Positions 14,527 to 16,756 of a stretch of 64,000 nt of DNA are shown in pieces (position 1 is the stretch's first letter; every line of letters starts with the position of its first letter). A model generated the notes under the pieces. The model worked only from the letters and a program-made list of their open reading frames with translations. It ran no database searches and was not told where the DNA came from. Source of the DNA: Candidatus Wolfebacteria bacterium GW2011_GWB1_47_1 (lineage in GTDB: Bacteria; Patescibacteriota; Minisyncoccia; UBA6257; UBA9933); contig CP011209.1 in assembly GCA_001029635.1 (NCBI GenBank), forward strand, positions 618,435 to 682,434, written 5' to 3'. The position numbers and the translations under genes were made by a program.

Positions 14527-14556
14527 TTGACAGAATGTTTTATTATACGGTATACT
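14527..14556 (+). promoter_or_regulatory. Sigma70-like promoter of rpmA
   Basis: TTGACA (14527-14532) -N18- TATACT (14551-14556). Confidence 0.55.
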
Positions 14557-14640: not shown

Positions 14641-14934
14641 ATGGCACATACCAAAGCCAAGGGGTCTACTAAAAATGGCCGAGACTCCCAGGCACAACGA
14701 TTAGGAGTAAAGCGACAGCACGGCCAGACTGTCGGCGCAGGTGAGATCTTGATCCGCCAGCGTGGAACTAAATATTTGCCGGGTCTCAATGTTGCCCGCG
14801 CAAAGGATGACACCTTGTACGCGATGATCCCGGGAACCCTTCAGTTCTTGTCACGCACCAAGATTAAGTTTGACGGAAACAAGCGAAGCGTAAAAGTTTT
14901 GACCATTGTTCCGAAGACTGTTGTCGAGGCATAA
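14641..14934 (+). CDS. rpmA: 50S ribosomal protein L27
   Basis: [24 protein letters not shown]... is the canonical L27 N-terminus. Confidence 0.95.
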
Positions 14935-14945
14935 TGTGATATTAT

Positions 14946-14980
14946 GAAAAATCCGCCTTTCAGTTGATGGGCGGATTTTT
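14946..14980 (+). terminator. Intrinsic terminator of rpmA
   Basis: aaaaatccgcc...ggcggattttt. Confidence 0.7.
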
Positions 14981-15490
14981 GTGTCTTCATTTTCTTAAAA
15001 AACGTTTTCTGTACTTTTTCTGGAAAAAGTACCAAAAAGCCTGCGAGCGAAATAAAAAAGCGGAATGCCTTTAAAAATTCCTTACGAAGTCCGAGGGTGC
15101 GCCCGTTTATCAACGGGTCCCCGCACCTCGGATTCTGTGGGAATTTTTTGCGTTCATTCTGGTCGCTTTTTTACAGCTCGCGCCCGGATGTGAGGAGGTT
15201 TTCTTTGTCTATTTAATCCTTGTTTTTATATGATCGCAACATCGAATACGAGAATTTTTCTTCGTTCATTTATACTTTATTTTTACAACTCGCATTGGAA
15301 TGCGGGGAGATTTTCTTCGCCTATCTTCACGCCGTTTTTACATGCTCGCAGGTGCGAATGCGATTCAAGAATTTTTTTTGCCTTCATTGCGCAGCAGATT
15401 TTATTTTTCGTGTGCGCGTTGTCATCCGGCCCTTTATTTTTCATGCCGCTTGCCACGTGGAACATAATCATTTTTTTTATGTTGCTACCG
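14981..15490. repeat. Gene-free tract: degenerate tandem repeats (period 55-61 bp, about 6 units from 15142) preceded by three hairpins
   Basis: The motif TTTT(C)TTCG(Y)TCATT recurs at about 15142, 15198, 15253, 15309 and 15370. TTTTTACAnCTCGC(A) recurs at 15171, 15226, 15283 and 15338, each followed by a GAATGCG-like segment. Confidence 0.75.
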
Positions 15491-15491
15491 T

Positions 15492-15522
15492 AAAAAAAGA
15501 GCTGCGGCGTTGCAGCTCTTTC
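15492..15522 (-). terminator. Intrinsic terminator of gene 15556..16215
   Basis: agagctgc ggcgt gcagctct stem with a T7 run on the minus strand. Confidence 0.7.
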
Positions 15523-15555
15523 TGTGTCTACGGGATGTTTTTTAGTTATGCCGAT

Positions 15556-16215
15556 TTACGATGACATCGGCTGAATTTCTTCTCGTGAGGAATCCGGTCG
15601 CCTTCCGTACTTTACGTAGAGAAACACAAGCAACCGCGCAACGAGGGCCACCCCCAGCACCTCCATTAAGAAGGTAAGGCCACTTACGGTCGCCTGTTCT
15701 CCTAGAAACGATAAGCCACTGATAAGAACATACCCAAAGACCGCGCAGGTGGTGGCTCCGCATAACATGATCGATTTCAGGGTTTCGCAGAATATCGAAA
15801 ATAGCAGGAACACGGGCATGGAAATCAGGATTAACATGGTGATGAACCACTCCGGGCGATCCGATCGCTGCGGCTCCTTGAGCTTCGGGATGAAACGCCC
15901 ATCTTGATAGCTGTAGGTGATTTCGGTTATTTCCGTTATCTGCCTGAGCGGTAATCCGAATTGTAGATCTATCGCAACTTCTTTGCCGGTCCAGCTTGCT
16001 CCTTTTCCGAATTGCTTCAGTCGGTAGGCTGTTGCCAGAGGCAGGTCCTTTGGAACATCGTTGATCATCTCGATCACTCTTTCGCCTTGGCTCACCACTA
16101 CGGCGTTTTTTACCCGCTGAAAGGACAATTCCTGATCAGCCGCAGCTAAGGCAAAACCTGAAACAGGTATACTTACCAGCAAGATTGCCATCAAAATTAT
16201 TGTTCTCATCGCCAT
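15556..16215 (-). CDS. Hypothetical membrane protein (signal peptide, extracytoplasmic domain, 3-4 C-terminal TM segments)
   Basis: GGGAGGGG SD. Hydrophobic N-terminus and C-terminal TM stretches. No family recognised. Confidence 0.6.
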   Translation of the reverse strand: MAMRTIILMAILLVSIPVSGFALAAADQELSFQRVKNAVVVSQGERVIEMINDVPKDLPLATAYRLKQFGKGASWTGKEVAIDLQFGLPLRQITEITEITYSYQDGRFIPKLKEPQRSDRPEWFITMLILISMPVFLLFSIFCETLKSIMLCGATTCAVFGYVLISGLSFLGEQATVSGLTFLMEVLGVALVARLLVFLYVKYGRRPDSSREEIQPMSS

Positions 16216-16312
16216 CCCCTCCCTATCCTTTTAGTATGGTGTACTGAAAACAAAATTGCACATACCTGTTATTTTGTCAATCTCCAGCTTACGGAATGTG
16301 CTCGAGGTATTT

Positions 16313-16342
16313 TTGACTTTTTGTTGGATAGGCTTATATACT
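16313..16342 (+). promoter_or_regulatory. Sigma70-like promoter of the two-peptide unit
   Basis: TTGACT (16313-16318) -N18- TATACT (16337-16342). Confidence 0.55.
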
Positions 16343-16390
16343 GGGGGTAGATTCTTTATCATTCGTCATTCTTAGTGAGGAGGTTTGAAA

Positions 16391-16534
16391 ATGTTTTCGA
16401 TACCGGGTGGCTTGGCAGAGCGATTGGGATTCCCTTCGTTCAATATCAATCTTGACCTCGATGATATCGCTGACGTCAGCGAGGAAGCAGCTGCTCACGT
16501 GTCAGTGAATCCCCGATTCGCCAGAAGGAGGTAG
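16391..16534 (+). CDS. Candidate 47-aa acidic peptide (MFSIPGGLAERLGFPSFNINLDLDDIADVSEEAAAHVSVNPRFARRR)
   Basis: GAGGAGG lies 7 nt upstream of the ATG, downstream of a strong promoter. Not in the ORF track (<60 aa). Confidence 0.5.
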   Translation: MFSIPGGLAERLGFPSFNINLDLDDIADVSEEAAAHVSVNPRFARRR

Positions 16535-16540
16535 TCTGAT

Positions 16541-16696
16541 ATGCTTATGCGAATTAAGCGTGGAGGAAAGATGGTTTTTATCCGCACTCAGCCTGCTCCG
16601 AGGACAAAGTGTTCGTGCGGTAAATTGGGGTGTTGCTGTGGCGCTGTTGATCTCTCGGCGCGTCCCTGGACAGGATATGGGTATCCCCATAGGTAA
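16541..16696 (+). CDS. Candidate 51-aa basic Cys-rich peptide (MLMRIKRGGKMVFIRTQPAPRTKCSCGKLGCCCGAVDLSARPWTGYGYPHR)
   Basis: AGGAGG lies 9 nt upstream of the ATG and overlaps the end of the preceding ORF. Same reading frame as 16391..16534, separated by TAG plus 2 codons. A terminator follows. Confidence 0.5.
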   Translation: MLMRIKRGGKMVFIRTQPAPRTKCSCGKLGCCCGAVDLSARPWTGYGYPHR

Positions 16697-16720
16697 GCCG
16701 CCGCATTACTTTTTATGACA

Positions 16721-16751
16721 AATGCCTCGCCGATACGGCGAGGCATTTTTT
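16721..16751. terminator. Hairpin terminator (atgcctcgcc gata cggcgaggcat + T7)
   Basis: Perfect 10-11 bp stem with a T-run on the plus strand. Lies between the peptide unit (+) and the rplI 3' end (-). Confidence 0.7.
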
Positions 16752-16756
16752 GTTGG

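Follow-up and report, generated by a model that had tools for sequence, protein, structure and literature searches.

Bacteria of the Candidate Phyla Radiation (CPR) have tiny genomes and scant non-coding DNA; what, in such a genome, is the nature of a tract of about 500 bp devoid of any credible gene? The tract in question occupies positions 14981-15490 of a 64,000-nucleotide stretch of Candidatus Wolfebacteria bacterium GW2011_GWB1_47_1 (contig CP011209.1, positions 618,435 to 682,434 of the forward strand), referred to here as the window, in whose coordinates positions are given. It lies downstream of the ribosomal protein gene rpmA and was described in a previous sequence-only reading as an array of about six diverged tandem units. 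The dominant feature, which that reading missed, is a 139-nt inverted repeat at 15043-15181, accompanied by an AT-rich palindrome at 15011-15032. The tract very probably consists of a conserved structured element, of which these two are the main parts, and of decayed tandem duplicates of its 3′ half or arm. The parts of the element are the following, the + strand being the orientation of the covariance model (R1) that describes it:

15009..15203, + strand: complete structured element of ~195 nt (P1, A-run linker, long rod, tail); 184.7 bits and E 1.5e-37 with R1
15011..15032, + strand: P1, an AT-rich 10-bp hairpin or perfect palindrome, GTACTTTTTC-TG-GAAAAAGTAC (inverted repeat I3)
15034..15038, + strand: A5 linker between P1 and the rod, an A5-6 run in the aligned copies that span the position
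15043..15181, + strand: long rod hairpin of 139 nt with 54 pairs and the closing stem GCGAGC/GCTCGC

The rod is composed of a 5′ arm (~15043-15107), an apical loop (15108-15111) and a 3′ arm (~15112-15181); folded as RNA, the 146 nt from 15040 to 15185 form a near-perfect hairpin of -66.1 kcal/mol (z -7.25). Its largest interruptions, in the consensus, are an internal loop of ~4 x 5 nt and a bulge of 4-6 nt that flank helix 4. The apex is the most variable part of the element, with loops that differ among the aligned copies. The right arm of the rod is the first unit of the tandem array, and its left arm (15043-15085) is an inverted copy of that unit.

Is this hairpin an accident of one genome or does it belong to a family? 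Relatives' contigs and loci, designated by L-numbers, were anchored on CtpB and ribosomal protein L9 because the 219-aa gene that borders the tract on its right is without homologues. Within the species, the 12 kb around the tract recur at 99.9-100% identity in several metagenome assemblies, including GCA_003453235.1 (100% in L001-L003, L005 and L006, 99.9% in L004 and 99.99% in L008), with zero differences inside the tract. Beyond it, blastn matches positions 14995-15088 to the extreme ends of contigs L012 and L013, at a different genomic place, and a degenerate-pattern scan of metagenomes yields full copies in three more species (L051/L031, L046/L068 and L064). A first metagenome pattern, from which the window's own variant was excluded, has zero matches; a second has 51, five of them true family members (three contig pairs or singles) and the rest chance occurrences in GC-rich coding DNA. 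With R1, which was built from four sequences, one full-length copy each is found in the window, L064, L051, L046, L070, L074, L007 and L069, and matches cut by contig ends are found in L012 and L071, for a total of ten contigs of Wolfebacteria, ultra-small bacteria of groundwater. No second copy is present in the ~180 kb scanned with R1, and an exact-pattern scan lists one stretch for the 893-kb contig behind L046. The identity of L9 among the element-bearing species is merely 66-81%. Rfam 15 has no relevant match to the whole window at the gathering score, and searches of the tract, L051 and L007 at E values up to 10 leave a sole low match, to Bacteroidales-1 in L007, that is at chance level (15 bits, E 1.6). 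No account of such an element in CPR bacteria was found in literature searches; it is a previously undescribed, Wolfebacteria-specific structured element.

Scans of viral contigs with the palindrome and two element patterns returned chance palindromes or nothing. One viral contig, L016 (IMG/VR 3300035520_001104), carries at least four GTACTTTTT...AAAAAGTAC palindromes resembling P1, at 5744, 5837, 11769 and 12282, none of them with a rod; they are probably an unrelated terminator-like repeat. In three independent short-read cases, the assembly ends inside the element (L012:1, L013:1 and L071:9848). De Bruijn graph assembly is probably interrupted here by the long inverted repeat, and the element may be under-represented in metagenome-assembled genomes.

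Conservation extends to the structure itself. In a ten-sequence alignment (A9), 93.8% of the cells are standard pairs versus 80.3 +/- 1.0 in shuffles, and both-sided, compensatory changes occur at 28 of the 56 pairs, a level reached in none of 500 shuffles; when the partners are slid by one to three columns, pairing falls to 40-53%. An independent MAFFT alignment analyzed with RNAalifold recovers the identical helices. The covariation backs helices 2-7, which make up the rod, and extends to P1 (helix 1), where 4 of 11 pairs are compensatory and GTAC/GTAC is replaced with CCAC/GTGG in L007 and L071, the L070 copy being imperfect. The most divergent copy, in L007 (72 bits), folds on its own into P1, A-run and rod (z -5.0). 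Unpaired positions are kept as well: the loop and bulge sequences GAAU and CACAG are retained, as is an apex of the form GAACUCGC ... CUCAGACA in eight copies, and a U.G wobble (+ strand) in 7 of 9 sequences. Sequence conservation peaks in the middle of the rod, around GCGGAAUGG/CCAUU, with small loops on its flanks. A conserved small open reading frame (ORF) inside the rod was considered and rejected, the frames varying in length and sequence between species.

The tandem units begin with the 3′ arm of the rod and continue to its right:

15138..15194, + strand: u1, the rod 3′ arm in use plus the tail hairpin CTCGC-N8-GTGAG; first unit of the array
15195..15249, + strand: u2, a degenerate copy of arm and tail; identity 40/54 with u4 and 38/53 with the L051 3′ arm (repeat family D2)
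15250..15305, + strand: u3, degenerate as well, with CTCGCATTGGAATGCGGG as its tail hairpin; identity 40/54 with u1 and 43/56 with the L051 arm (families D1 and D3)
15306..15365, + strand: u4, the unit nearest to the 3′ arm and tail of other species
15366..15430, + strand: u5, the most decayed recognizable copy, 42/55 identical to u3 and 36/56 to u1 (family D3 copy at 15374-15388)
15431..15490, no strand assigned: T-rich tail of the tract, with partial alignments of 22-24 matches over 28-33 nt

The periodicity claimed for the tract is real, with a degenerate period of ~56 bp and five units between 15138 and 15430 that are 74-83% alike and differ by indels; a sixth unit, in the T-rich tail, is unsupported, and the stronger signal is a super-period of ~112 bp. 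In the autocorrelation, lag 112 has a z of 4.9 and lag 57 a z of 3.3, the 95th percentile of the per-shuffle maximum being 3.5. A blastn self-comparison gives a match of 138 nt at 69.6% identity (E 7e-7), and a seed-based repeat search gives families with spacings of 55, 57 and 112 nt, D1 being that of ~112 bp. Tandem Repeats Finder reports nothing in the tract because the copies are ~70-80% alike and contain indels; the units were thus defined by seed-based repeats, autocorrelation and pairwise alignment. In each, a T-rich block and TTTTTACA-N-CTCGC are accompanied by a small inverted repeat. Copies resembling TTTTCTTCGYYCATT lie at 15144, 15199, 15256, 15311 and 15374, with spacings of 55, 57, 55 and 63 nt, and TTTTTACANCTCGC at 15168 and 15280, its degenerate versions being at 15223 and 15335. 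The motif positions proposed from the letters alone were correct within 1-4 nt, and both small inverted repeats, at 15291-15304 and at 15346-15357, were confirmed; a further copy, of cttcatt type at 14986, comes down to a mere 19-nt, 79% match that overlaps the rpmA terminator (family D5). At up to two mismatches, neither unit motif occurs again in the 64-kb window.

Where do these units come from? The 3′ arm of L064, the sister species, and u1 share 84% identity, and u4 matches the 3′ arm and tail of L051 at 46/57, of L046 at 45/56 and of L070 at 44/53 positions (80-83%), whereas a shuffled control gives 16 matches on average and 39 at most. The duplex of the rod 5′ arm with u1 has a free energy of -35.8 kcal/mol (z -5.7); its pairing with u2-u6 is weak and near background (z -0.8 to -2.1). 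Single units fold no better than shuffles, and the covariance model, with filters off, finds no rod in 15190-15560. As judged by these alignments, the tandem units are paralogues of the rod 3′ arm and its small tail hairpin. The u1-u5 array is absent from all nine element-carrying relatives, including the closest, L064. Of the earlier proposals, a decayed repeat family and a structured non-coding RNA locus each hold in part; the repeats, however, come second to the conserved hairpin in the left third of the tract, of whose 3′ arm and tail they are degenerate copies.

Although the array is peculiar to the window, arm duplication as such is not. Orphan 3′-arm copies, one or two each, are found in four relatives: L070 has a second 3′ arm, of a different type, after the rod; L071 has two further arm ends; L007 retains, after the rod, 33 nt of an arm of the other type together with its tail; and L069 has a remnant across an inserted gene. 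Two arm types can be distinguished by their closing stem, GCGAGC/GCTCGC and CGAAC/GTTCG; they coexist at the locus in several species, and the type that forms the rod varies, being type 1 in L070 and L071 and type 2 in L007 and L069. The orphan copies in these four relatives make arm duplication a recurrent accident of the family. At long inverted repeats, replication is prone to slip or to switch template; either event could here have generated tandem copies of the 3′ arm and tail, of which u2-u5 (15195-15430, ~56 bp each and partly in ~112-bp doublets) would now be decaying and functionless.

The genomic surroundings of the element are variable. It lies downstream of rpmA, in constant orientation, in the window, L070, L074, probably L071, and L069 (with a gene between); elsewhere, it is found between GSDH and Gmad2 in L007 and L012, in a divergent region beside dnaB in L046, between an MFS transporter gene and a transketolase gene in L051, and after a tRNA-ligase gene in L064. 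No neighbour gene is common to all of these contexts (rpmA, dnaB, transketolase, tRNA ligase, GSDH/Gmad2). The GC skew keeps its sign across the element in L051, L046 and L007, and in the window the tract is ~2 kb past a local maximum of the cumulative GC skew, the global one being near 31 kb; a replication origin, terminus or dif site is rejected on these grounds. A different palindrome, resembling a repetitive extragenic palindrome (REP), GTCATTCCCGC-N3-8-GCGGGAAT, occurs in multiple copies in several relatives (6 in the 17 kb of L007; also L051:6092-6150 and L069:11606-11628). It is often situated 30-130 nt upstream of the element, and degenerate copies stand immediately upstream in L046, L064 and L074; the 64-kb window has none. 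Translation of this palindrome yields spurious ORFs (MSFPRRRESI...).

What, then, could the element do? The best explanation of the whole, to which a probability of about 0.5 is given, is a lineage-specific element encoding a putative small non-coding RNA, followed by decayed partial duplications of its arm. The element itself has close to even odds of being an RNA gene; this is favoured because of its deep conservation with compensatory change, the retention of asymmetric loops, the single copy per locus, the independence from neighbour genes and the constant co-orientation with rpmA. It would specify a small, stable, rod-shaped RNA, most likely transcribed from left to right, co-directionally with rpmA, which may act in trans as a protein-binding scaffold or as a mimic of a double helix.

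Several observations weigh against this explanation. No sigma-70-like promoter is conserved on either side of the element, nor does a consistent + strand terminator follow it, a tail hairpin with a U-rich run being present in the window and L051 and not consistent elsewhere. Both strands fold about equally, the minus strand being more stable in 6 of 7 species, and in every copy the A-run corresponds to a U-run right after the rod on the minus strand, as would be expected of a terminator or of a transcript from that strand. The few wobble pairs are mildly asymmetric (15 vs 8 among pairs common to both strand-derived structures and 25 vs 17 in their union); this symmetry exceeds the expectation for a typical RNA and is compatible with a palindrome acting at the DNA level. 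Templated (quasi-palindrome) mutation can yield apparent compensatory changes without selection on an RNA, the pair counts come from an alignment, A9, that was fitted to the model's own structure, and its ten sequences are related and hence not ten independent events. Finally, that arm copies recur in five species could point to a function retained by them. The extra 3′ arms might in that case form a modular switch, at the level of RNA or single-stranded DNA, in which one 5′ arm pairs with, or is re-templated from, several 3′ arms. This would explain the persistence of orphan arms of two types in five species, the difference in arm type between close relatives and the fact that u4 is closer to other species' arms than is u1, the arm now used. 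It is quite improbable; if true, such an exchange of hairpin arms would be a form of variation not described for bacterial non-coding elements.

The RNA gene has to be weighed against other functions, among which a DNA-level quasi-palindrome, i.e., a non-coding and possibly mobile or recombinogenic inverted repeat akin to miniature inverted-repeat transposable elements (MITEs) or enterobacterial repetitive intergenic consensus (ERIC) sequences, or a single-stranded-DNA hairpin site, is unlikely but draws some credit from the weak points just listed, as do the terminator and 6S-like readings below. Intrastrand template switching would keep the arms complementary, and the tandem arm copies would be direct products of instability. 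The equal folding of the strands, the nearly all Watson-Crick pairing (~3% wobble), the arm duplications and arm-type swaps in five species, the three independent assemblies broken within the element and the lack of a detected promoter all speak for it, as does the variable position within the syntenic block (rpmA-rplI in the window, L070 and L074; GSDH-Gmad2 in L007 and L012; absent in L010 and L072). Like ERIC, Correia and MITE palindromes, the element is an imperfect intergenic inverted repeat of 130-200 bp with a variable position and local rearrangement. However, those are multi-copy and near-identical within a genome, whereas the element has one copy per locus in ~180 kb and the single stretch listed in the 893-kb L046 contig, is spread across species and combines conserved loops with covarying stems; no transposase, Y1/HUH or Xer-type gene is adjacent, and the orientation to rpmA is constant in five species. 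Template-switch mutagenesis, together with slipped-strand duplication, accounts for the tandem arm, the recurrent copies and the concerted change of the arms, but it is a mutational mechanism and not a function, and it leaves unexplained why asymmetric loops and bulges, which templated correction would be expected to remove, are deeply conserved. An improbable alternative is a large transcription terminator or insulator, halting read-through between convergent or tandem genes with the repeats as extra weak terminators. It would fit the A5-6 run conserved in the aligned copies (U5-6 on the minus strand, 3-4 nt after the GC-closed rod), the location between convergent rpmA and rplI-side genes in five species and between co-directional genes in L007 and L012, and the terminator-like score (hairpin plus T-run) of two unit boundaries, one at 15177-15194 in u1, followed by GAGGTTTTCT, and the other at 15289-15306 in u3. 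Yet such sites are not enriched in the region (4 vs 2.9 +/- 1.5 in shuffles), rpmA and the orphan gene each have their own canonical terminator, in L046 dnaB and a gene pointing away from the element flank it in a divergent promoter region, which leaves nothing to stop, and a 54-bp stem with conserved internal loops goes far beyond what termination needs.

Two further possibilities bear on proteins that the locus might bind. As a special case of the RNA gene, the rod could mimic DNA and sequester RNA polymerase in the manner of 6S or Ms1 RNA. Those RNAs are likewise long irregular hairpins of ~140-200 nt closed by their own ends, with one gene per genome, variable contexts, compensatory changes in the stems and the greatest conservation in the middle of the rod; compared with the 150-200-nt rod with pairing ends that characterizes 6S RNA, the element has paired ends and measures 139 nt in its rod and ~195 nt with P1 and tail. 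Unlike them, it has an AT-rich hairpin added on the 5′ side, along with an A-run; a large central bubble is lacking, no Rfam 6S model matches at E up to 10 (window, L051, L007), and this identification has a low probability. As for the ~56-bp units, the sequence-only reading had proposed that they are sites to which a protein of segregation, replication or nucleoid organization binds; known counterparts would be iterons or centromere-like sites such as sopC and parC. There are indeed more than the three regular repeats expected of such arrays, five units spaced by 55-63 bp with common motifs, and the proximity of u4 to other species' arms could hint at constraint. The array is nevertheless missing from the nine element-bearing relatives, including L064, its units have diverged to 74-83% with indels, no Par- or Rep-like gene is nearby, the skew does not switch at the element in L051, L046 or L007, and descent of the units from one hairpin arm explains their common motifs without any protein; a binding array is very improbable, and an iteron or centromere array was rejected.

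Other known systems were compared and set aside. A clustered regularly interspaced short palindromic repeats (CRISPR) array, similar in its 55-61 bp period and in the small inverted repeat of each unit, is rejected, as the sequence-only reading had correctly done: whole units align at 74-83% identity, there are no unique spacers, and no Cas domain occurs within ~6 kb on each side. The ToxI arrays of type III toxin-antitoxin systems are also non-coding tandem direct repeats of tens of nucleotides beside a gene, with terminator-like hairpins. Their repeats, however, are near-identical and lie upstream of, and co-directional with, the toxin gene, whereas the units of the tract are diverged and their neighbour is convergent; a ToxI-like array is rejected, the adjacent orphan membrane protein having no ToxN-like domain, Pfam family or homologues. 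The bacterial signal recognition particle (SRP, 4.5S) RNA is rejected as well: the apex is the most variable part instead of a conserved domain IV with a GNRA-type tetraloop, and there is no Rfam SRP match.

The tract is delimited by the terminators of two convergent genes, both of which are present as had been described:

14641-14934, + strand: rpmA, identified by Pfam PF01016
14947..14980, + strand: left boundary, the intrinsic terminator of rpmA, in which a T-run follows inverted repeat I2
15496..15521, - strand: right boundary, the terminator of the convergent 219-aa gene, in which A- and T-runs enclose a perfect 10-bp inverted repeat (I10)
15556..16215, - strand: orphan gene for a predicted membrane protein of 219 aa, within a lineage-specific 1.8-kb rpmA-rplI segment

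The absence of a credible ORF between these terminators is borne out: the ORFs of the tract span 62-114 aa, all without a Shine-Dalgarno sequence, and conservation is impossible for them, since the right two-thirds of the tract exist solely in this species. No tRNA or tmRNA gene was found in a search. No conserved protein gene is found at the site in relatives, and the periodicity holds. The called genes within ~6 kb on each side have the Pfam domains GltX, M23 peptidase, NUDIX, L27, L9, CtpB, LigT, Gmad2, GSDH and SOD. The 219-aa protein has no Pfam family and zero homologues besides itself among 5.8 billion proteins, none in species-representative genomes, and its gene is absent from the rpmA-rplI interval of L007, L010, L012, L072 and L074; it is a true orphan confined to this species. 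As just 38-330 bp separate rplI and rpmA in L007, L010, L012 and L072, the 1.8-kb segment of the window is lineage-specific.

The rpmA-rplI interval, between convergent genes, is a hot spot of variation in Wolfebacteria, ranging from 38 bp to 2.2 kb (window 14935-16756; L007:9851-10179; L069/L070:10460-12682; L072:5184-5221; L074:6937-7347) and containing differing orphan genes, of 219 aa in the window, 81 aa in L007 and 208 and 211 aa in L069 and L070, with a methyltransferase also in L070. In the window, a strong + strand promoter at 16313-16342, TTGACT-N18-TATACTGGGG, is followed by a GAGGAGG ribosome-binding site and a 47-aa ORF (16391-16534, +; MFSIPGGLAERLGF...NPRFARRR). The product, which has no Pfam family, is 70% identical to that of an unannotated ORF at L069:12431-12574 (-), also in the rpmA-rplI interval. 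It looks like a genuine conserved small-protein gene, and in some contigs gene callers placed a 52-aa ORF opposite its strand. A link between the hairpin element and this ORF is rejected, the ORF being present solely in the window and L069. Its promoter and that of rpmA (14527-14556), the latter kept in the relative L012 (L012:4360-4404, -), have the common extended consensus TTGAC(A/T)-N18-TATACTGGGG, which could serve as a promoter model for the clade.

To our knowledge, and within the reach of the literature searches, descriptions of lineage-specific non-coding RNAs from the CPR are almost absent. Found in no fewer than ten Wolfebacteria contigs and changed in a compensatory manner at half of its pairs, the element is a strong candidate for a hitherto unknown functional hairpin, be it RNA or DNA, and it can be sought directly in existing groundwater metatranscriptomes; should it be merely a structured orphan motif, its interest would be modest and specialist. 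The locus illustrates why the assemblies of these genomes break there. The tract is a natural example of how a long inverted repeat spawns duplicates of its arm that later resemble an enigmatic array, and its source is a clade-specific, rod-like structured element with recurrent arm duplication.

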